Source: Armatimonadota bacterium
GTDB lineage: Bacteria > Armatimonadota > Zipacnadia > Zipacnadales > JABUFB01
Length of the DNA: 64,000 bases
NCBI GenBank assembly: GCA_013314775.1
Contig: JABUFB010000019.1
Coordinates: 3,189 to 67,188 of the forward strand
Reading direction: 5' to 3'
Part shown: piece after piece, positions 16,108 to 29,004 of the stretch
How the letters are laid out: each line of letters starts with the position of its first letter
Position numbering within the stretch: the first letter of the stretch is position 1
Notes under the pieces: model-generated
Databases searched by the model: none
Seen by the model: only the letters and a program-made list of their open reading frames with translations
What the model was told of the DNA's origin: nothing
Program-made: the position numbers and the translations under genes

Positions 16108-16641
16108 ATGAAAGTTCGATCAACCACCGTCCTGGCAGTGCGGCGAGACGGTATCACTGCAATCGCTGGAGATGGACAGATCACCGTGGGTGACACGGTG
16201 CTGAAAAGCAACACGAGCAAGCTGCGAACCCTGCGAGGCGGCAAGATCGTGGTTGGGTATGCCGGCGCCGCCGCCGATGCCCTCGCCCTCTTCGAGCGCC
16301 TCGAAGCCAAGCTCGATGAGTACTCCGGCAATGTTCAGCGTGCCTGCGTTGAACTTGTGAAACAGTGGCGCATGGACAAGGCGCTGCGGCATTTGGACGC
16401 GATTCTCATCGTCGCCGATCGAGACAACCTTCTGCTTGTCTCGGGAACGGGAGATGTCGTGACGCCTGATGATGATGTCATCGGCATCGGTTCGGGCGGT
16501 CCTTTTGCCCAGGCAGCCGCCATCGCCATGCTTCGTCACACGAAGATGGGTGCGGAGAAGATCGCGCGCGAGGCCTTGGCCATCGCCGCGGATATCTGCA
16601 TCTATACCAATGACCACATCACCGTGGAGGTCCTGAAGTGA
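16108..16641 (+). CDS. hslV: ATP-dependent protease subunit HslV
   Basis: [51 protein letters not shown] aligns throughout with HslV. A 5-residue extension MKVRS precedes the catalytic Thr-Thr. Confidence 0.9.
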
Positions 16642-18047
16642 TTGAGGGCGAGCTGACACCCCGGCAGATCGTGGAAGAGCTGGACAAGTACATCATCGGC
16701 CAAGACCAGGCGAAGCGCGCTGTGGCCGTGGCTCTACGCAACCGTGCCCGCAGGCGGCAGGTTCCTGAAGACCTGCGCGACGAGATCATCCCCAAGAACA
16801 TCTTGATGATCGGACCCACCGGTGTGGGCAAGACCGAGATCGCCCGGCGCCTTGCGAACCTCGCCAATGCGCCGTTCATCAAGGTTGAGGCCACCAAGTT
16901 CACGGAAGTCGGCTATGTGGGTCGCGACGTGGAGTCCATCATCCGTGACCTTGTGGACACTGCATACCACATGGTGGAGGAAGAGTACTTCGAGGACGTC
17001 TGGGACGAAGCGGAACGTCGTGCCGAAGAGCGCCTCCTCGAGGCCCTCTGTGGGGCAGCTCGCGATCAGGAACCACGTGAGCCAGCCACGTTGTCCAGTG
17101 ACAGCATCACCGATCTCGCCACCCTCGAGGAGCAACACAGGCGCGCGGAGCAGTTGCGCGCCCAGCATGAGCGCGTCCGGCAGTTCACTGAACGCCGATT
17201 GCGCGACCAGGAACTCGAGGACGAGCAGGTGGACATCGAGGTCGAGGAGAGCAACTGGCAGACAATGCAGGTCTTCTCAGCCGCGGGGCTCGAGGAGATG
17301 GGCTTCAACATGCAAGATATGCTCGGCAGCATGTTCCCCGCGAAGAAGACCACCAAGCGCATGACTGTCGCGGAAGCCCGACGGGTTCTCACCTACCAGG
17401 AAGCCGAGAAGCTCGTGGATCAGCAGGAAGTTGCGCGCGAAGCCCTTGAGCGGGTGGAAGAGAGCGCCATCGTCTTTCTCGACGAGATCGACAAGATCGC
17501 CGGCCGCGAGACGGGTCATGGGCCGGAAGTCTCCCGCGAGGGCGTGCAGCGCGACATCCTGCCCATCATCGAGGGCTCCACGGTGATGACGAAGTACGGG
17601 CCGGTGGAGACCAGCCACATCCTGTTCATCGCTGCCGGGGCCTTCCACGTCTCCAAGCCTTCGGACCTCATCCCCGAACTCCAGGGGCGCTTCCCGATCC
17701 GCGTGGAGCTCAAGAGCCTCACCGAAGAGGACTTCTGCCGCATTCTCGTGGAGCCGGAGAACTCACTGGTGCGCCAGTACACCGCCCTGATGCGGACCGA
17801 AGGCGTGGAACTCGAGTTCACCGAGGACGCGCGCAATGAGATCGCCCGTCTGGCCCGCCAGGTCAACGAGTCCGCCGAGAATATCGGCGCGCGTCGACTG
17901 TATACCATGATGGAAAAGCTGCTGGAGGAACTGTCTTTCGCCGCGCCGGAGATCGGCGAGCAGCGCGTGGTTGTGGATTCCGCGTACGTCCGGGCCCAGC
18001 TCAAGGACGTAGTCGCCGATCAGGACCTGAGCCGCTATATGCTCTGA
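16638..18047 (+). CDS. hslU: ATP-dependent protease ATPase subunit HslU
   Basis: GTG start overlapping the hslV stop by 4 nt. [29 protein letters not shown] and [15 protein letters not shown] Walker A. 469 aa. Confidence 0.95.
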
Positions 18048-18048
18048 T

Positions 18049-18618
18049 GTGTCGCCTGCCCTGCGCCACCGGGGAACATCGACCATGGCAAGACAGGCAT
18101 CGAGGATTGCATTCAACCTGTTAGGCGCCGCGCTCGGGCTGCGCGACCGTTTCTTGCCGCCCGAGCGCGTGCTGCATGAAGCGGAGATCCGGTCAGGCAT
18201 GACGGTGATCGACTACGGCTGCGGCACGGGGTCCTTCATCCTGCCCGTTGCCGGACTCGTGGGAGAGACGGGCGCGGTCCTGGCTGTCGACGTGAATCCC
18301 CTCGCCGTCGAACGGGTCGCTCGCATTGCCGGTGCCAATGGATTGACGAATGTGCGGGCGCTCCGATCCGACTGCTCGATCGATCTGCCCGATGGGTCCG
18401 TGGATGTGGCTCTGCTGTACGACGTTCTCCATCACCTGCGGCCGCCCGAGCCCGTGCTATGCGAACTGCACCGGGTTCTCAAGGCCCACGGCAGGCTCTC
18501 GCTGAGCGACCACCATATGAACCCCAAAGCTATCGTGCACTGCGTCACGGCGACCGGGCAGTACCGTCTTGCGCGCCGTGATCGCTACACCCACACCTTC
18601 GTCCCGGTGCGTGACTGA
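18049..18618 (+). CDS. class I SAM-dependent methyltransferase
   Basis: Motif I VIDYGCGTGSF and acidic motif II LAVDVNP. The start could instead be ATG 18085 (MARQASRI). Confidence 0.6.
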   Translation: MSPALRHRGTSTMARQASRIAFNLLGAALGLRDRFLPPERVLHEAEIRSGMTVIDYGCGTGSFILPVAGLVGETGAVLAVDVNPLAVERVARIAGANGLTNVRALRSDCSIDLPDGSVDVALLYDVLHHLRPPEPVLCELHRVLKAHGRLSLSDHHMNPKAIVHCVTATGQYRLARRDRYTHTFVPVRD

Positions 18619-21049: not shown

Positions 21050-23725
21050 CTATCTGCCCAGTGCCTCGTCGATGATATGGCGAATACTGGCCAACATCGC
21101 CTCAACTGCGGCCTCGGGCTCCGCATGGCCCTGGAGTACCGGGTATATGTGGCTCTGGATGGCGCGGCTTACCCTCTGATAGTCAGGGATGCGCTCTCGG
21201 GTTCTCGCGCTTGCGAGGATCTGCTTGAGCTCGCGGTAGTGGGGCTGGAAAGCCAGGATTTCCTGGTCGTCGTAGAGCGCCTTGAGAGTGGGCAGTGGTC
21301 CGCCACGCAGCGCCCGTTCCTTCTGGATCTCGTAGCTGCTCATGAATCTGATGAAGTCCCGCGCGGTGGAAGGCGCCAACGCGCCTCGCGGAACAGCGTA
21401 GTGCCACCCGCCCAGGAAACTGTGGCTCTCGGTGCCCGATGGTCCCACCGGCGCAGGTGCAATGCCGACCTTGCCGCGCACCGCAGAATCTGTCTGCATG
21501 GCGGGCTGCATGACGCTCGGGAGCATCCAGAGAAACACCGTGCGCCCGGCCAGGAAGTTTTCCTGGGGTTCCACGCCGTGCCCGGGCGCCGTGATTTCCC
21601 GCGGCGTAACTGCGTGAACGTGGATCAGGTCTCGCATGAACCGGACCACTTCCAGCGCCTTCCCCGCGTCTAACGTCATCTCTCGGGTTGCATCGTCAAT
21701 GACCTGCCCACCGTTGCTCCACAGGTTCACAAGGAACGAGCTGCTGAGCCCCTCGTAGGTGAAGGCTGGGAACTCAAAACCGATCAGGTTCTCGTTGCCG
21801 GGCGCTGAACAGATGGTTTTCGCCTGGTCCACGAGTTCGTCCCAAGTGGCAGGGGGCGCCGAGAAACCGTGCTCCTGCAAGATGTCTCTGCGATACAGCA
21901 GCACTCCGCACAAAGCGATGGCGGGGACCGCATAAACCTCGCCGTCCACGAGGGCGGGCTCCACGACTCCTTCCAGGTGCTCTTCCCAGTCTCCCGGAGG
22001 AAAGATGTCGTTGAGGCTGGAGAGGCGGTCCGGCTGTATTACCCCAGGCATCCAGTACATGCACAGCGGCACCACGCTAAGGCTGGTCTGGCGCGCCGCC
22101 ATGGCCTGGACCACCACATCCCGCGCCTCGTCGGGGTTGTAAGGAATGCTCAGCGGAACTGGCTTCACGCGCGGCTGGATCTGGGCGAACCGTTCCAGCA
22201 GTTCTTCATTGAGTTTCTCGTCGAACTCCGAGAAACTGCGCACGGCCAGCTCGATCGGCACTGCCCGGGCAGCTCCGGCCATGAGCCCCTCGGTGCCCTC
22301 GAAGCGCCCGTGGACGGTGAGGCCTTTGTTGCTGATGGTGAAGCGCCGGATGCCCTTGTCATGGTCGCTGCCACGCAGTTTCAGGACTGACAGGGCGCGC
22401 TGGATTTCGCTCTCCATCTCCACGTACTTCAGTAGAATGATGCAGTCTACGATAATGGAGATGTGTTCGCCCGTGACTTGCGTCTGCCCGAAAACTTCGG
22501 GCACCTCCGCGATCAGCAGGCTCGTGACGCCCCGATCTTCCAATGCGTCGCCCACCGCGTAGACAAGCTCTCGAAGGCCGTCCTCCTGGGTCGCGCCCAT
22601 CTGCAGGTCGGTGAGCGAGTCAATCACAACCCGCTTCGCCCCGAGTGTGTCCACCTGCTCCTTGAGGTCATGAATGAACTTCTCCGGGCGCGTATCCAAG
22701 GGCGAGCAGTACACCACCTGGATCAGGCCCTGATCCTGGTATTCCCGCAGGGGCAGGCCGTAGCTCTGCGCGATCTCCGTGAGCTTGACCGGCGACTCCT
22801 CGAAGCTTACATACAGGCTTTTCTCACCGAGGCCGGCCCCCTGGCTCACGAACTGCAGGCCCACAGTAGTCTTGCCCACGCCTGCGCTTCCGGCAACCAG
22901 CGTGGAGAAGCCGCAGATCAGCCCTCCGCCCAGCATCTCGTCGAGGCCGCGAATACCCGTAGGAGTTCGGCAAAGGCCTCGGGCCCAGGCAAGGCCCTCG
23001 CGCTTTGACGGCTGGTGCCTGGGATAGACCGCGGCGCCGCGGTCGGTCAGCTCAAGCATGTGCTTGCCGGGAACGTGCGGCGCGCCCCGGCTCTTGAGCA
23101 CTTCCACGTATCGCCGCCGCTGATTGTGGCTGAAGGTGTCGTATCGCAGCCGCACGACGCAGTCTGCAAGAAACTCTTCGAAGGGCACGCAATCGGTGTC
23201 GAAGCTCTCGAGTTCCTTGGTGATGACCGACGTGAGCCCCGCTCTGCGCAGCCCGTTCATCATCCCATAAACCGCAGCCCGCAGATGTCCCGGTTCGCGG
23301 CCCATCTGGCTGAAGTGCGAGACGCTGTCCATCAGCAGCCGCGTGGCGCCGATCTCGGCAACGGTCGCCTCCACGATTCCGCCCACATCCTGAAGCTGGT
23401 CCAGGAAAACCTCGGGGGACGTGCAGATGATTCGCAGTTTGCCCTCTGCCTCGAGTTGTGCCAGGTCCCACCCGAAGTTGAGTGTGTCCTGCTTGAGCTG
23501 GCGGGGGAACTCTTCGAAGGTGACGATGATGCCCGGGTTGCCGGACATCGCCGAGTGGTAAATGAACTGCAGCCCGACTGTGGTCTTTCCCGTGCCCGGG
23601 ACGCCCTCGAGCAGACTGCAGCTTCCCTCCCGAAAACCGCCGGAGAGCAGCTCATCCAGTCCCGGGACGCCCGTACTGATCGCTCTAGCTGTCACTTGCT
23701 GTCGCTCCTGGCTGTGGGGGGCCAT
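21050..23725 (-). CDS. tandem KaiC-like RecA-superfamily ATPase fused to a C-terminal ABC-type solute-binding-protein (SBP_bac_1, sugar-binding-like) domain
   Basis: Two KaiC modules. Module 1: GVPGLDELLSGGF..EGVPGTGKTT, IIVTFEEF, RLLMDSVS. Module 2: GIRGLDEMLGGGL..AGSAGVGKTT, LYVSFEES, RVVIDSLT. Then about 400 aa with SBP family-1 signatures (AVPAIALCGVLLYRRDILQEHGFSAPPATWDELVDQAK; FLGGWHYAVPRGALAPSTARDFIRFMSSYEIQ). No signal peptide, so the binding domain is predicted cytoplasmic. Confidence 0.7.
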   Translation of the reverse strand: MAPHSQERQQVTARAISTGVPGLDELLSGGFREGSCSLLEGVPGTGKTTVGLQFIYHSAMSGNPGIIVTFEEFPRQLKQDTLNFGWDLAQLEAEGKLRIICTSPEVFLDQLQDVGGIVEATVAEIGATRLLMDSVSHFSQMGREPGHLRAAVYGMMNGLRRAGLTSVITKELESFDTDCVPFEEFLADCVVRLRYDTFSHNQRRRYVEVLKSRGAPHVPGKHMLELTDRGAAVYPRHQPSKREGLAWARGLCRTPTGIRGLDEMLGGGLICGFSTLVAGSAGVGKTTVGLQFVSQGAGLGEKSLYVSFEESPVKLTEIAQSYGLPLREYQDQGLIQVVYCSPLDTRPEKFIHDLKEQVDTLGAKRVVIDSLTDLQMGATQEDGLRELVYAVGDALEDRGVTSLLIAEVPEVFGQTQVTGEHISIIVDCIILLKYVEMESEIQRALSVLKLRGSDHDKGIRRFTISNKGLTVHGRFEGTEGLMAGAARAVPIELAVRSFSEFDEKLNEELLERFAQIQPRVKPVPLSIPYNPDEARDVVVQAMAARQTSLSVVPLCMYWMPGVIQPDRLSSLNDIFPPGDWEEHLEGVVEPALVDGEVYAVPAIALCGVLLYRRDILQEHGFSAPPATWDELVDQAKTICSAPGNENLIGFEFPAFTYEGLSSSFLVNLWSNGGQVIDDATREMTLDAGKALEVVRFMRDLIHVHAVTPREITAPGHGVEPQENFLAGRTVFLWMLPSVMQPAMQTDSAVRGKVGIAPAPVGPSGTESHSFLGGWHYAVPRGALAPSTARDFIRFMSSYEIQKERALRGGPLPTLKALYDDQEILAFQPHYRELKQILASARTRERIPDYQRVSRAIQSHIYPVLQGHAEPEAAVEAMLASIRHIIDEALGR

Positions 23726-24167
23726 CCGCTTCGCCCCCGTGCCGATCCTCTTGCTGCTGGCGCACCAGCATCATCAGGATCTCTTTGCGCGCCTCCAGAT
23801 CGTCGTGGTAAGCGTCGCTCACCAGGCACAGGAGGTTCCAGACCCACGGCTCTCTGGCCAGTGCGTAACAGGTGTACTTGCCGTCCGCCCTCACGTGCAC
23901 CTCAAGTAGCTTGTGCGCGGCGAGCCGCTCCAGGGCAGGGCGGATCTCATCTATTCCGCGGTGTGTGCGCAGCGCGATGCCCGAACACGTATCGAAAGTG
24001 CTCGGGTTCGCCTGGTAGAACAGCGCCACATCCAGCCCCACCATGGTGCGCGCCACGTCCCGGATGAACTTTCGTACCCTGTCGTCCATCGCAATTCCTC
24101 TCGGCCCGCGACGGATGTTGCGCGCCCCGGCCCCAAATGGAGCCGCCCTTGCGGGTTTCTTCGCCAT
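23685..24167 (-). CDS. hypothetical small protein with winged-helix-like C-terminal segment
   Basis: 160-aa ORF immediately upstream of the KaiC-like gene and overlapping it by about 40 nt. IRPALERLAAHKLLEVHVRADGKYTCYALA resembles a wHTH recognition helix plus wing. The start may be the internal Met (MDDRVRKF). Confidence 0.3.
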   Translation of the reverse strand: MAKKPARAAPFGAGARNIRRGPRGIAMDDRVRKFIRDVARTMVGLDVALFYQANPSTFDTCSGIALRTHRGIDEIRPALERLAAHKLLEVHVRADGKYTCYALAREPWVWNLLCLVSDAYHDDLEARKEILMMLVRQQQEDRHGGEADGPPQPGATASDS

Positions 24168-24436
24168 CCGTGTCTCCTATTCCTGCAAGATGTGCAGACA
24201 GACTTTTCCGGCCTCTATGGCTCAGGCCGTTGCGATCGCAGTGCTGATCTTATTCACCGCCAGTTTGCAGTTTTGTTCCGACCAACTTGTGTTTTCTGCC
24301 AATGAATCGGGGGTGAGAGCCATTTCGCAGACAAACTGTGGGACTTTTCCGTAGTGGTATTGGCGGACAGGATCGGATACACTACAATAGAAGGGGGGGC
24401 GGCCCGCAAAGGTCACCGCGGACCGCCGGAAACCAC

Positions 24437-25723
24437 ATGGGCACATCGAGTTCACAACCGTCTCCCAGAAACGAACAGTGGCGTTATGTGCGGGACGCGT
24501 ACCGCGACGGCATCCGCGAACCGGCGGAGATTTCGCGGCGCATCGCTCTCGCGATCGGCACACCCGGCCGTCTTGCCATGGCGGACACGGGTCCCTCTAT
24601 GTGCCTGGACTCTCTCCTGCTCGGGGCTCGCAGGTATTCCGAAGACCCCCCGGCCCCCAGCTCCCCCCGGCCCCCGCTCCAGACCGTTGCCCGGCTGCGA
24701 TCTGACGCCGAATGGCGGCTGGCCCAGCAACACAGGGCTTCGCGATACACCGACATCGCACTCGATGCCCTGGGAGTGGCGGCCACCCGCGCGCTCGGGA
24801 TCGGGGAGGACCTTGACGCCCCCAATGCGAAATCACTCTCCCGTTACCTGGATGAAGAGCGCATGCACGAGCTGGCCGCGGAGTTCCTCGCGGCTGATAT
24901 CGACCGTTGCTTCCGATACTTCGTCGCCCGTGACATCAGCGAATTGGTGGGATCAGACTACCTGCCAACCGTTGGCCAGGCAGAGGAGTTTGCGCGCCAG
25001 GTCGCCCTTTTTTCCAGCCGTGCTACAGTCGGCGCGATATGTGCCGATGATGAGTCCAGGATCCAGGACGCTGTCAGGCGTTCCGGCGACCAGGAACGCC
25101 TCGCGGTCGTCGGCGAACTCCTGAAACAGGGCATCGACCGCAGCCTCGAGCGAATCTGTGTTGCGTCGGGGCGGGAGGGCACCGGCCGCAGTCATGCGCG
25201 CGGAAGTGCGGGTCCACCAGGCGATGATGACGACGCCGCACACACGCCGGCGCTCCGGCTCATAGACGATGACCAACGTGAGCCGGGGCGCGACTACCTG
25301 CCCGTGTACTCTCTGGAAGCGGCGGCGGGGTACTTCGGCGAAGGGCAGCCTGTTGAGAGCCTGGGGTACGTGCAAGCCCCGCCGGGGCTGCGCCTGTGTG
25401 ACGGGCTCTTTGTGGTGCGCATTCGGGGGCGCTCGATGGAACCCAGGATCCCCGATGGAAGCTATGCGGTCTTCCGCACACCTGTTGTGGGGTCCCGCCA
25501 GGGCAAGATCGTTCTCGCCCAGCGGCGCGGGTACCACGACCCGGACACCGGGGGAAGCTACACGGTGAAACGGTATGAAAGTGCCAAGACCGTAAGCGAA
25601 GACGAGTGGAGCCACACCATGATCCGCCTCGTGCCTGAGAACCCGGAGTATGAACCGATCGAGATCCGGGGAGACAGCGCGGACGAACTGGCGATTATCG
25701 CCGAGTTCGTGACCCTGCTGTAG
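24437..25723 (+). CDS. protein with about 260-aa N-terminal domain of unknown function, disordered acidic linker and C-terminal LexA/UmuD-like S24 peptidase domain
   Basis: C-terminus LPVYSLEAAAGYFGEG...RIRGRSMEP...GSYAVFR...GKIVLAQ...YTVKRY carries the S24 Ser (GRSME) and Lys (TVKRY) dyad motifs. The N-terminal region has no recognised family. Linker GSAGPPGDDDDAAH. The track ORF opens at 24338. ATG 24437 was chosen. Confidence 0.65.
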   Translation: MGTSSSQPSPRNEQWRYVRDAYRDGIREPAEISRRIALAIGTPGRLAMADTGPSMCLDSLLLGARRYSEDPPAPSSPRPPLQTVARLRSDAEWRLAQQHRASRYTDIALDALGVAATRALGIGEDLDAPNAKSLSRYLDEERMHELAAEFLAADIDRCFRYFVARDISELVGSDYLPTVGQAEEFARQVALFSSRATVGAICADDESRIQDAVRRSGDQERLAVVGELLKQGIDRSLERICVASGREGTGRSHARGSAGPPGDDDDAAHTPALRLIDDDQREPGRDYLPVYSLEAAAGYFGEGQPVESLGYVQAPPGLRLCDGLFVVRIRGRSMEPRIPDGSYAVFRTPVVGSRQGKIVLAQRRGYHDPDTGGSYTVKRYESAKTVSEDEWSHTMIRLVPENPEYEPIEIRGDSADELAIIAEFVTLL

Positions 25724-25858: not shown

Positions 25859-27214
25859 TTGCCTGACAGGTTCGTCGTCGCGCACAGTGCCCAGGGGGGC
25901 AGTGGCAAGTGCGCGCCGGGGGGCAACGAGACACTTGTTCTTGACTGGACCTCGGCCCGGCGCAACGCTATCTGTGACCCGTCGATGTTGCTGGGAGCCT
26001 GCGGCGGAAGGCTGACTGCTCCGCTGCAGGACCTGCTCGACATCGCAACCGCCATCTATCTTGCCGATGTGGCGGCATTTCGCGGTGCCCACGAGGAATG
26101 GGTGCGCCACTTGCACCTGACCATACCCGTCCTCGAGCCCACCTTCTGGCAAGCGCAGACCCCCGATCTGCAGCACCTTCTGTACAGTCTGACCCGGGAC
26201 TCCTTTACATTCCACTTCCTGCAAGCGGACCGGGATCGTTCCGAGGACTGCCGGCAGCACGCCCTGCCCGGCCATCCGGATTGCGTATCACTTCTGTCAG
26301 GGGGTCTGGATTCTCTGGCTGGCGCGGTTTCGCTTCTTCGGGCGGGACGCAGGCCCCTGCTCGTGAGCCACCAGTCTGCGAACCCCGTTGTGCAAACCGC
26401 GCAGCGGCGGCTTGTGGCAACGCTGGAAACCCACTGGCCCGGTGGAGCACAGTGGGCAGGGGTTCGGGTGACGCCCGGGAGCTACGGCGTCGAGGCCCGG
26501 CCCTTCCCTCCGCCCGAGGAGCGCGAGCCGTCTCGCCGGGCCCGACCTGTGCTCTTCCTGACACTCGGCGCCATCGCCTCACACTGCCTGGGCACCTCCG
26601 AGGTCTACATGTGTGAAAACGGGGTGCTCACCGCGGCCTTGCCCCTCACTCCGGCGCGCATTGGCGGCATGTCCACCCGGAGCACCCATCCCGTGACTAT
26701 CAAGCTCTTCTCGGAACTCCTCCAGAAAGCCGGGGTGTGCACAAGCTATCTGAACCCCTTCATGTTCCAGACCAAGGGTGAAGTGGTGCGCACATTCCTC
26801 AAGCCCGTGCTTGCGCCGCAGGAGATCGCACAGTCCGTCTCCTGCTGGATGGCGGGGAGGTTCGTGCGCCCATGTGGGGGATGCGTGCCGTGTCTATTGA
26901 GACGCATTGCGCTGCTCGCGGCTGGTTTGCCTGACGAGGCCTGCATCAACGACGTCTTGCGCGATCCCGAGCAGTACCGGGGCACAGATGCCTTCGGCAA
27001 TCTCGCGGACCTGCTCACCCAGGCTGCAACATTCCTGGGCAAGACCGACCTGGAACTCCTCCTGGAGTACCCGCAGTTCGCGGACCTCATCTCCGCCGAC
27101 GTGCCGGTCCAGGATGTCCTGCGCACCATGAAAAGACACGCGGCCGAGGTCCTGAACGTCTGTGACGCTCACTTCCCGGCGGCAGCGAGGATGCTCCACA
27201 CCACGGTTTTCTGA
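25859..27214 (+). CDS. QueC-like PP-loop ATPase (7-cyano-7-deazaguanine synthase superfamily) with about 130-aa N-terminal extension
   Basis: SLLSGGLDSLAG PP-loop (QueC SGGQDST). PVLFLTLGAIAS (QueC NILFLTLAAIYA). C-terminal zinc knuckle SCW...RPCGGCVPCLLRR (QueC TCY..GCGHCAACNLR). TTG start. Possible alternative start at M 25985. Confidence 0.7.
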   Translation: MPDRFVVAHSAQGGSGKCAPGGNETLVLDWTSARRNAICDPSMLLGACGGRLTAPLQDLLDIATAIYLADVAAFRGAHEEWVRHLHLTIPVLEPTFWQAQTPDLQHLLYSLTRDSFTFHFLQADRDRSEDCRQHALPGHPDCVSLLSGGLDSLAGAVSLLRAGRRPLLVSHQSANPVVQTAQRRLVATLETHWPGGAQWAGVRVTPGSYGVEARPFPPPEEREPSRRARPVLFLTLGAIASHCLGTSEVYMCENGVLTAALPLTPARIGGMSTRSTHPVTIKLFSELLQKAGVCTSYLNPFMFQTKGEVVRTFLKPVLAPQEIAQSVSCWMAGRFVRPCGGCVPCLLRRIALLAAGLPDEACINDVLRDPEQYRGTDAFGNLADLLTQAATFLGKTDLELLLEYPQFADLISADVPVQDVLRTMKRHAAEVLNVCDAHFPAAARMLHTTVF

Positions 27215-27729: not shown

Positions 27730-29004
27730 TCAGATGCTCGCCAGTTCCCGTCGCAGAGCCTCAACCAGCATCTCTCCGGAGCCCGGGGCCAGCTTGCTCG
27801 TCCGCTTGAGTTCCAGTTCGTAACCGCCTTCGTCGTAGTGGTGCCGGTAGCCCACATACCCGAGATGCCCGTTGGCCAGTCCGCAGAATGCCACCGGCCC
27901 GAAGCCTTCCTTCACATCAAGCCCCAGTTGGCAGAAGGGCTGGACCGATGCAGCGCCGACGCGCAGGTCTCCGATGCGCAGGGCCTGAAGCTCGCACGGA
28001 ATGCTCGTCTGCTGCCTTGTGACCTCATGCAAAAGCACCAGTTCCCGGGCGTACACGTGCTCCACGGTCTTCTCCCGCCCCCTTTGCCACAGCTCTCGCG
28101 CCTCCTGCAACTGAGGCGCGGATGGCCCTCGCAAGGGAAGCTCCAGTGTCTTGGACTTCGCTGCGGTCACAGGTTCGTACTGGTCGTCCGCGCTTTCCAG
28201 CGCCGCCAGCGCAGTACTCGCAATCGCCTGTCCTGCACGTCTTGCGGCCTCGGGGCCGAACGCGTCCTCGCGCCTGCCATTCACGAAATCACACTGGTTC
28301 ACATCGCCGATTGCCCCGGGCAGGTAGACGGTGGGCACACCCAGTGCCTGCTCGATCCAGGCCGGGTAGTCGCCCGAGTACCCATCTCCCGTCATGAACG
28401 TGGTGTGGCACGTGAAGTTAGCAATGCACCCAAAGAGCGTCCCGGACTGGTCGTACACCCCGAGCGCCGCCACCGCCGGGTCAGCCGGGCCGAGAACGTG
28501 GTCGATGTCCGGGTTCCCGTAGCCCGGATTGGTCTTCACCGAACCATTCTTCATCCGGAAACGGCGGTTGAATGCCACCCCGTGAAGTTCGCCGCATCCC
28601 ACCCGGATATGGGCCGGCCTGGCAATCCGTGACGCGACATCCACCGCACCGCAGATGGCCCTCGCGACCCGGTGCAGGTAGTCCGGGTCCGCCTCGGACA
28701 TGAGCACCTCGCCGGTCGGCCCTCCGGTGTGGGTGTGGGTCGCCGCAATGAGCATCGGCACCGGATAGCCGATAGACTCCTCCACAAGTCTGCGGGCTTC
28801 CGCAATGCTGGACGCTTCCAGGAAAACGCAGTCCACCGACACCAGCGCCAGGGCTTCGCTGCCATCGCTGAACCACGCGGCTCGGGCATAGAGCGGGTCA
28901 TGGGCGCCTGTGGCGTAGTGTTTGAAGAACCCGCCCGGCATCTCGCTGCCTGCCGCGGGAGTGATGTCGGCGCTCGCAAATCCTGCCCGGAATGCGCCCA
29001 TCAT
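27730..29004 (-). CDS. neutral/alkaline ceramidase-like hydrolase
   Basis: 424 aa. N-terminus GFASADITPAAG and the length resemble the bacterial neutral ceramidase fold. The 4-nt ATGA overlap with the upstream DUF4438 gene suggests an operon. Confidence 0.45.
   Translation of the reverse strand: MMGAFRAGFASADITPAAGSEMPGGFFKHYATGAHDPLYARAAWFSDGSEALALVSVDCVFLEASSIAEARRLVEESIGYPVPMLIAATHTHTGGPTGEVLMSEADPDYLHRVARAICGAVDVASRIARPAHIRVGCGELHGVAFNRRFRMKNGSVKTNPGYGNPDIDHVLGPADPAVAALGVYDQSGTLFGCIANFTCHTTFMTGDGYSGDYPAWIEQALGVPTVYLPGAIGDVNQCDFVNGRREDAFGPEAARRAGQAIASTALAALESADDQYEPVTAAKSKTLELPLRGPSAPQLQEARELWQRGREKTVEHVYARELVLLHEVTRQQTSIPCELQALRIGDLRVGAASVQPFCQLGLDVKEGFGPVAFCGLANGHLGYVGYRHHYDEGGYELELKRTSKLAPGSGEMLVEALRRELASI

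Follow-up and report, generated by a model that had tools for sequence, protein, structure and literature searches.

The stretch of Armatimonadota DNA analysed here (contig JABUFB010000019.1; 64 kb in length, hereafter the window) carries on its reverse strand a gene for a protein in which two KaiC-type ATPase domains are followed by a complete carbohydrate-type solute-binding protein (SBP) domain. The gene for this protein, referred to as KaiC-SBP, directly follows a small gene encoding a predicted winged-helix (wHTH) protein. The combination of a two-domain intact KaiC, a cytoplasmic SBP_bac_1-type domain, and a dedicated winged-helix partner, nearly confined to one bacterial phylum, appears to be new. 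Through this conserved module of Armatimonadota, gene expression is probably controlled in response to a carbohydrate signal. Our reading, with a probability of about 0.5, is that the two genes form a signalling module in which a KaiC-type ATPase, joined to a cytoplasmic sensor of carbohydrate, would control the winged-helix regulator. The sensing role gains indirect support from the winged-helix partner, the divergent GH2 glycosidase gene found in most related loci, and the existence of homologous KaiC-SBP-AraC proteins.

A conserved KaiC-SBP fusion

The KaiC-SBP gene was delimited as a maximal open reading frame (ORF) of 891 aa at 21050..23725 on the reverse strand, with its stop codon at 21050-21052. 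In the Pfam scan of this ORF, two KaiC domains (PF06745) were assigned at aa 16-236 and about 253-472 (whole-protein E of 1.5e-102), and SBP_bac_8 and SBP_bac_1 were matched within aa 532-823 (E of about 1e-18); all matches were above the curated cut-offs. An AlphaFold2 model of the full-length protein, built from a 44-sequence family alignment, had a mean pLDDT of 89.4 and a pTM of 0.70, and its KaiC half fitted KaiC crystal structures with target-normalised TM-scores of 0.81-0.87. The ORF listing, Pfam, phmmer, and the model bore out the initial annotation of a single 891-aa ORF with two KaiC modules and a C-terminal SBP domain. Its description of 21050-24167 as one gene was not retained, as this range holds two genes, and the probable start shortens the product. 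Two start codons were considered, ATG 23725 (891 aa) and GTG 23695 (881 aa). GTG 23695 is likely the true start because AGGAG lies 9 nt 5' of it, the resulting length is that of the NCBI protein NSW58437.1, and the first 11 residues of the longer ORF show no conservation and have a model pLDDT below 50.

A homology search over 5.8 billion clustered proteins retrieved at least 84 protein clusters (P0001-P0084) with the same KaiC and SBP Pfam architecture. The full-length members were 868-892 aa long (about 875 aa) and 44-75% identical to the window protein, and the next matches below P0084 were KaiC-only proteins, in which about half of the query was covered. Nearly all of the clusters were from Armatimonadota; the carrier organisms are non-photosynthetic, and their samples came from sediment and digester. 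The automatic database names were either 'MAG: extracellular solute-binding protein [Armatimonadota]' or 'circadian clock protein KaiC'. The architecture had been thought to be uncharacterised, and no description of it was found in full-text literature searches, whose coverage is incomplete and excludes Makarova, Galperin and Koonin 2017, so that this absence is no proof; as a family of at least 84 clusters, it is not unique to the window.

An assembly or frameshift artefact joining two genes can be ruled out as the source of the fusion, as the ORF is continuous in at least 84 clusters and 27 GTDB genomes. The one case that could speak for such an artefact is an ENA contig (54,509 bp) in the 90% cluster of P0001, where the gene is split into pieces of 299 aa (P0320) and 583 aa (P0322), probably by a frameshift, a sequencing error, or pseudogene formation in that assembly. 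This sole split falls inside CII, away from the border between KaiC and SBP, while every other assembly is intact, and the segment at that border is the best conserved of the protein. The chance of an artefact is therefore practically nil, and the earlier caveat that a corrected assembly might reveal two genes did not hold across the independent assemblies.

The KaiC half was compared with clock KaiC at the level of motifs. The CI-type RecA/ATPase domain (aa 16-236; 23018..23680, reverse strand) contains Walker A GVPGTGKT at 41 (K47/T48), an FEE motif at 70-72 (E71-E72), Walker B RLLMDS (D133/S134), and the arginine finger KSRG at 211 (R213). The corresponding elements of the CII-type domain (aa 253-473; 22307..22969, reverse strand) are GSAGVGKT at 279 (K285/T286), FEE at 308-310 (E309-E310), RVVIDS (D369/S370), and KLRG at 449 (R451). 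Inspection thus found the Walker A, FEE, and hhhhDS Walker B motifs in each module, as first described. Judged by these motifs, both domains are catalytically intact, and ATP turnover would be expected. In the alignment of 44 family members, K47, T48, E71, D133, and R213 of CI were invariant, and the CII Glu pair was essentially so. The second CI catalytic glutamate (E72; codon 23510-23512) is Gln in 29 of the 44 members, whereas the window protein keeps both glutamates; CI of most relatives may bind ATP with hardly any hydrolysis.

In the phosphosite region (QVTGEHISIIVD in the window protein versus SITDSHISTITD in KaiC), Ser423 (codon 22457-22459, reverse strand), the equivalent of S431 of Synechococcus elongatus KaiC, is invariant (44/44). 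Position 424, equivalent to T432, is Ile or Val in all 44 members, and T418, equivalent to T426, is Thr or Ser in 42. KaiC-SBP may act as a single-site autokinase at Ser423.

Similarity to clock KaiC extends over the whole KaiC half. When aa 1-498 were compared with PDB chains by phmmer, full-length KaiC matches were obtained, among them 8zn5 (E 1.3e-82) and S. elongatus 1u9i (E 7.1e-75), and the identity to S. elongatus KaiC (1tf7, 2gbl, and 7s65) was 30-34% over about 480 aa, with CI and CII, Walker A/B, Glu pairs, Arg fingers, and the S431 and T426 equivalents in common. Judged from the sequence, KaiC-SBP is nevertheless a KaiC-like protein and not an orthologue of circadian KaiC. It missed the cut-offs of both NCBIfam clock-KaiC equivalogs (337.8 bits versus 408 for PRK09302 and 260.6 versus 546.25 for TIGR02655), the T432 equivalent is absent, a CI glutamate is Gln in most relatives, the CI loop region is shorter (two 3-residue alignment gaps), and KaiB was not found. 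The remark that no KaiB homolog is adjacent was confirmed and extended, as neither the window nor any of 33 related loci gave a KaiB-like match in tblastn with a KaiB query validated against PDB 4kso.

The segment joining CII to the SBP domain (aa 474-490, RFEGTEGLMAGAARAVP; 22256..22306, reverse strand) is the best-conserved segment of the protein. The mean pairwise identity in the 44-member alignment was 0.62 for these 17 residues, compared with 0.54 for CI and CII, 0.53 for SBP, and 0.14 for the CI-CII linker. F475, E476, G477, G480, and G484 are invariant, and R474 is present in 40 of the 44 members. In the phmmer alignment with PDB chains, the junction is matched to 'FRNFERIISGSPTR' of KaiC, a position that we take to be the A-loop. 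The A-loop is the element by which KaiA switches KaiC into autokinase mode. Conservation of the SBP domain equals that of the KaiC domains, in keeping with selection on the whole fusion.

The SBP domain (aa 491-891; 21053..22255, reverse strand) is complete, of the CUT1 type (SBP_bac_1/8), and predicted to be cytoplasmic. A phmmer search of aa 482-891 against the PDB matched solved sugar SBPs with E values of 2.5e-56 to 5.7e-36, including Thermotoga maritima MalE3 (6dtq, E 2.5e-56; query 26-403 of 410 versus chain 20-391 of 400), the Thermococcus litoralis trehalose/maltose-binding protein TMBP (1eu8, E 7.7e-47), 6j9w, and SmoF (7nbz). The entry 6j9w is labelled as a Thermus 'ABC transporter, periplasmic substrate-binding protein', which we take to be an alpha-glycoside-binding protein. 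Trehalose, maltose, alpha-glycosides, and, for SmoF, sulfoquinovosyl glycerol are the ligands of these nearest solved SBPs. The domain is full length with both lobes equally conserved, and the family-invariant residues YWMP, YEG, LWSNGG, GGWHY, and R843 are common to the solved sugar SBPs. The SBP fold assigned to the C-terminal region of about 400 aa therefore holds in the Pfam scan, PDB homology, and the confident AlphaFold2 model.

The database name implies an ordinary exported binding protein of an ABC transporter, and its strong SBP homology agrees with that name. Here, in contrast, the domain is fused behind an ATP-dependent KaiC module of 480 aa that forms the N-terminus, and hydropathy and the model gave no signal peptide, lipobox, or membrane helix in KaiC-SBP, which bears out the earlier view that the SBP domain is intracellular. 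The sole hydropathy peak (KD19 of 1.77 at residue 592) was rejected as a membrane helix because it coincides with conserved beta-strands in the core of the SBP domain. No ABC importer permease or ATPase genes were present in the called-gene lists of three related loci (L001, L003, and L004) or seen among the neighbouring ORFs of the window. Export is thus hardly credible and effectively refuted. The initial annotation favoured sensing over transport, possibly with autokinase activity; with no ABC permease genes seen in those three loci or beside the gene in the window, and with a winged-helix partner, GH2 neighbours, and AraC-fused relatives as indirect support, sensing is the most economical reading of the domain, while the autokinase part is uncertain with Ile or Val at the T432 position. 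In the LacI and LysR families, domains of the periplasmic-binding-protein fold are classical cytoplasmic sensors. SBPs are treated as extracytosolic in the main review of their signalling roles, where KaiC does not appear (PMC8050422).

The winged-helix partner gene, GH2 neighbours, and AraC-fused relatives

The partner gene (23685..24089, reverse strand; TAG stop at 23685-23687) encodes a 134-aa protein with a predicted winged-helix (MarR/ArsR-like) fold. It had been noted as part of a small ORF of 160 aa starting at 24167, with a wHTH-like C-terminus overlapping the KaiC-SBP start. The start was revised, because the 160-aa ORF aligns from Met27 with the ORFs at the same position in L001, L003, and L004 (55-58% identity), its upstream ATG is not retained in the 96%-identical relative L006, and GAGAGGA precedes ATG 24089, which is most likely the true start. 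The partner stop overlaps the KaiC-SBP start by 11 nt (GTG 23695) or 41 nt (ATG 23725), which indicates translational coupling. The predicted topology of the partner is a1-a2-b1-a3-a4-b2-b3-a5-a6, and its family comprises 35 clusters of proteins of about 130 aa without a Pfam domain. Pfam gave no match for the 134-aa protein of the window, and the sub-threshold matches among the 35 family members were all to wHTH families (HVO_A0114 in 18, DnaD_N in 16, and MarR_2 in 4).

The partner protein was used as an independent probe in one genome per GTDB species, which gave 28 loci, labelled as metagenome-assembled genomes of Armatimonadota, Armatimonadia, 'Ca. Zipacnadia', and WS1, or as unclassified 'uncultured bacterium'. 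In 27 of the 28 genomes, a KaiC-SBP gene directly followed the partner on the same strand, with its start within -40 to +170 nt. The small gene is thus the near-universal partner of KaiC-SBP and the only one; the wHTH fold and the overlap first noted were retained, and an incidental role was not. The sole exception was an orphan partner gene (L020, 2392-2805) with membrane-protein genes downstream and no KaiC-SBP.

Non-overlapping ORFs of 32 loci were clustered for a survey of the neighbourhood. A GH2 glycosidase gene (about 900-950 aa; Glyco_hydro_2_N, Glyco_hydro_2, and Glyco_hydro_2_C) lies immediately upstream in divergent orientation in 20 of these loci, and its products are mutually 49-71% identical. 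The gene is retained in L014, L029, L015, and L033, loci without the other common neighbours. As it is kept where the remaining synteny has been lost, a functional linkage is favoured over mere synteny. The GH2 neighbours are probably cytoplasmic, judging from the N-terminus of the L019 orthologue, in which no obvious signal peptide was seen on inspection. Other recurrent genes of the GH2 subclade encode GH123-like, pseudopilin-like N_methyl/SBP_bac_10, Gfo/Idh/MocA oxidoreductase, and OYE-type flavoprotein products.

The SBP domain alone was searched with HMMER against 1.8 billion representatives, and the long matches were typed by Pfam. Besides ordinary SBPs of about 420 aa, longer fusion proteins were retrieved. 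Among them were KaiC-SBP proteins carrying a C-terminal AraC helix-turn-helix (HTH) domain, with one KaiC-type domain in P0167 (704 aa) and P0165 (740 aa) and two in P0270 (955 aa); several further representatives of about 730-755 aa with the SBP domain at the same position are probably of the same type. BLASTP aligned the window protein with P0167 (29% over 635 aa, E 6e-92) and P0270 (26% over 831 aa, E 5e-87) collinearly through CII, the junction, and SBP. The KaiC-SBP junction is thus homologous in these proteins and goes back to a single fusion. The KaiC-SBP-AraC genes stand in neighbourhoods of carbohydrate type, with sulfatase, GH57, SBP, and pseudopilin-like genes around them. The window protein ends at the SBP domain, without a fused AraC HTH, and is accompanied by the separate wHTH gene instead. 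The same SBP type also occurs in BTAD-NACHT/AAA_16-SBP (P0267), Ser/Thr kinase-SBP (P0206), and LRR-SBP (P0221) proteins, and a KaiC-cupin fusion (P0091) was found in the same phylum. These architectures suggest that C-terminal sensors on KaiC are modular and that MalE-like SBP domains and KaiC serve as interchangeable signalling modules.

Proposed mechanism and alternative explanations

In the mechanism that we propose, KaiC-SBP would form a KaiC-like double-ring hexamer with six SBP (Venus-flytrap) domains held on the CII ring by the short conserved junction, which would stand in place of the KaiC A-loop and KaiA-binding tail. An intracellular carbohydrate or related small metabolite would bind and close the SBP domain, and the closure would pass through the junction to CII, where the nucleotide or ATPase state would change, possibly with autophosphorylation of Ser423. 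The state of CII would be read by the winged-helix partner through binding or release, and the partner would in turn alter the transcription of carbohydrate-utilisation genes, such as the divergent GH2 gene of most relatives. In a more specific version, which we regard as rather unlikely, the SBP domain would be a ligand-operated substitute for KaiA acting in cis: closure on a sugar would pull the junction and flip CII between autokinase and autophosphatase activity at Ser423, and the slow phospho-switch would give the expression of glycan-utilisation genes a delay or memory (an hourglass) via the partner.

Several observations weigh against the sensing module. The GH2 neighbour is missing at the locus studied here, as no GH2 match was found by tblastn anywhere in the window, and the GH2 linkage could come partly from shared ancestry within one subclade. 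With an acidic start of the partner recognition helix (D47 and E48) and no Pfam threshold reached, DNA binding cannot be taken for granted. The AraC-fused P0167 and P0270 have degenerate catalytic Glu pairs and a degenerate Ser423 equivalent, and phosphorylation is therefore no common mechanism of the wider group. LbKaiC2 of Leptolyngbya boryana, a cyanobacterial KaiC homologue with a single phosphosite Ser and, like most members of our family, a single CI Glu, has low ATPase activity and no detectable autophosphorylation in vitro (PMC11680916); because of this precedent, the autokinase activity of KaiC-SBP is put forward only as a hypothesis. LbKaiC2 likewise has no KaiA-binding tail, and a signalling gene lies directly next to its gene, but it has no SBP domain (PMC11680916).

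Three alternatives were weighed against a carbohydrate-sensing module that acts on transcription. The protein may instead be a metabolic timer or hourglass, a KaiC phospho-oscillator independent of KaiA and KaiB whose phase or reset is set by sugar and whose main role is timekeeping or delay and not on/off sensing. The full-length similarity to clock KaiC (E of 1e-75 to 1e-82 and the TM-scores above), the Glu pairs and S431 and T426 equivalents kept in the window protein, and the position of the SBP domain where KaiA acts on KaiC are in line with this role. We consider it improbable, as an ordered two-site cycle is impossible without the T432 equivalent, and the absence of KaiB from the window and the 33 loci, the equivalog scores below cut-off, the Gln at the E72 position of most relatives, and the non-photosynthetic carriers all point away from a clock.

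A structural or protein-binding SBP domain would fit the near-universal partner linkage, ligand binding being a prediction; the KaiC ATPase would then sequester or remodel the winged-helix protein, depending on ATP/ADP or some other input. GvpD, a KaiC-family ATPase, acts on the activator GvpE in such a pairing. KaiC-family proteins are also described as signalling hubs using protein-protein contacts in the passages of PMC5847659 that cite Makarova et al. (2017). This explanation is not a likely one, given a domain that is full length and equally conserved in both lobes, with invariant residues common to solved sugar SBPs, and that appears as a putative sensor in kinase, NACHT, and AraC fusions. 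A post-translational regulator, in which sugar is sensed but enzymes or transporters are the targets and the winged-helix protein is an adaptor, would agree with the variation of neighbouring genes between loci and with the ability of winged-helix domains to mediate protein contacts, DNA binding of the partner being only putative. To this last alternative we assign quite a small chance, and the sensing module with transcriptional output remains the preferred reading.

KaiC-SBP was further compared with known systems. Unlike clock KaiC, it has no free A-loop or KaiA-binding tail; the 400-aa SBP domain comes directly after CII, and no kaiB or kaiA gene is nearby. Rhodobacter sphaeroides KaiC (8dba and 8fwi; E of about 1e-48) is likewise a non-cyanobacterial two-domain KaiC; it is independent of KaiA, and its C-terminal extension replaces KaiA control. 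That extension is a coiled coil and KaiB is its partner, whereas here the extension is a ligand-binding-type domain and no KaiB was seen. The CUT1 SBPs share full-length homology and motifs with the C-terminal domain, which differs in its position behind an ATPase and in that no export signal or cognate ABC permeases were seen for it. MalT is a nucleotide-dependent oligomeric switch gated by sugar. MalT and other STAND proteins, as well as GvpD-GvpE, are functional analogies only; the NTPase of KaiC-SBP has no STAND homology and no membership is claimed, although BTAD-NACHT-SBP (P0267) shares its SBP type.

In archaea, it is an established idea that KaiC-family ATPases act as signalling hubs to which sensor or output domains are fused (Makarova et al. 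2017, cited in PMC5847659). As far as they are described in that citing account, the archaeal proteins, including KaiC-REC and KaiC-HalOD1, resemble the present family in joining an ATPase to sensor or output domains and small regulators in narrow, lineage-specific fusions; they differ in that KaiC-SBP is bacterial, carries an SBP_bac_1-type sensor, and has two intact domains instead of a single or inactivated one.

Most of what is known about KaiC concerns its role in the clock, and the inputs of its non-clock homologues in bacteria and archaea are largely obscure. A small-molecule-binding-type domain joined to the very region of KaiC on which KaiA acts in the cyanobacterial clock, with a winged-helix partner alongside, offers a tractable system. 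It raises questions on the gating of a KaiC ring by ligand, the use of SBP_bac_1-type domains as cytoplasmic sensors, and the regulation of glycan use in Armatimonadota. The analysis also corrects the systematic database misannotation 'extracellular solute-binding protein', and, more speculatively, sugar-responsive switches might conceivably be built on this architecture.

Neighbouring genes and intergenic DNA

The window belongs to a subclade with L001, L006, L007, and L009, in which the divergent neighbours are S24-peptidase-like and QatC-like genes. In the window, these are at 24338..25723 (forward strand; C-terminal S24 (LexA-like) peptidase domain) and 25859..27214 (forward strand; QueC family, PADLOC QatC with E of 1.2e-63). 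The pair diverges from the wHTH/KaiC-SBP operon and occupies the same position in the other four loci. No QatA, QatB, or QatD gene was seen, and the two genes may be a defence-like or regulatory unit of their own. Membership of the KaiC-SBP module in a defence system was rejected on the PADLOC result, in which the partner had no match and that of KaiC-SBP was limited to a weak P-loop similarity to mad8 (E 2e-8, aa 31-170).

The region between the partner and the S24-like gene (24090..24337) is presumed, by position only, to hold the promoter or operator of the two-gene operon. A promoter consensus scan found no site inside it, and the single match at 24360-24388 (forward strand) was no more than in shuffles (mean of 0.7). 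The GH2-type relatives have an equivalent intergenic region of about 250 nt with conserved boxes. These boxes lie about 40-200 nt upstream of the small gene (in L003, L010, L013, L016, L019, L021, L026, L028, L030, L032, and others). They comprise a CCTCC box, which is the GH2 ribosome-binding site on the other strand, and a GGAGGAT(T) box, which precedes the wHTH ATG by about 110 nt; a subset also contains GTYAAAGT-N5-6-TGAC/TTAAG. Their role may be that of a promoter, an operator, or a leader. Neither the regular expression GTYRA-N6-12-TYRAC nor the alignment of 19 intergenic regions with MAFFT gave a consistent shared operator palindrome.

Downstream of KaiC-SBP, a 772-aa FAD oxidoreductase (PF12831; 18631..20949, reverse strand) was confirmed 100 bp away on the same strand, as initially described. 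Conservation does not support a functional operon spanning 24167-18631: an orthologue (63% identical) follows KaiC-SBP in L009 only, and the downstream genes of the other loci differ. The oxidoreductase was therefore rejected as a functional partner. It has a C-terminal extension of about 330 aa (aa ~440-772); the whole-protein Pfam scan gave nothing past aa 436, and the last 289 aa alone had no Pfam match.

A neutral-ceramidase-like protein is encoded at 27730-29004 (reverse strand; Ceramidase_alk, E 8e-7, below the cut-off), and four loci (the window, L007, L015, and L025) have such a gene no more than a few kb away from the module. On the far side of the oxidoreductase, an HslU-like ORF (16638-18047, forward strand; judged by its translation only) is directly followed by a class I SAM methyltransferase gene (18049-18618, forward strand; confirmed by Pfam). 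These two genes converge on the oxidoreductase gene and look like ordinary housekeeping context.

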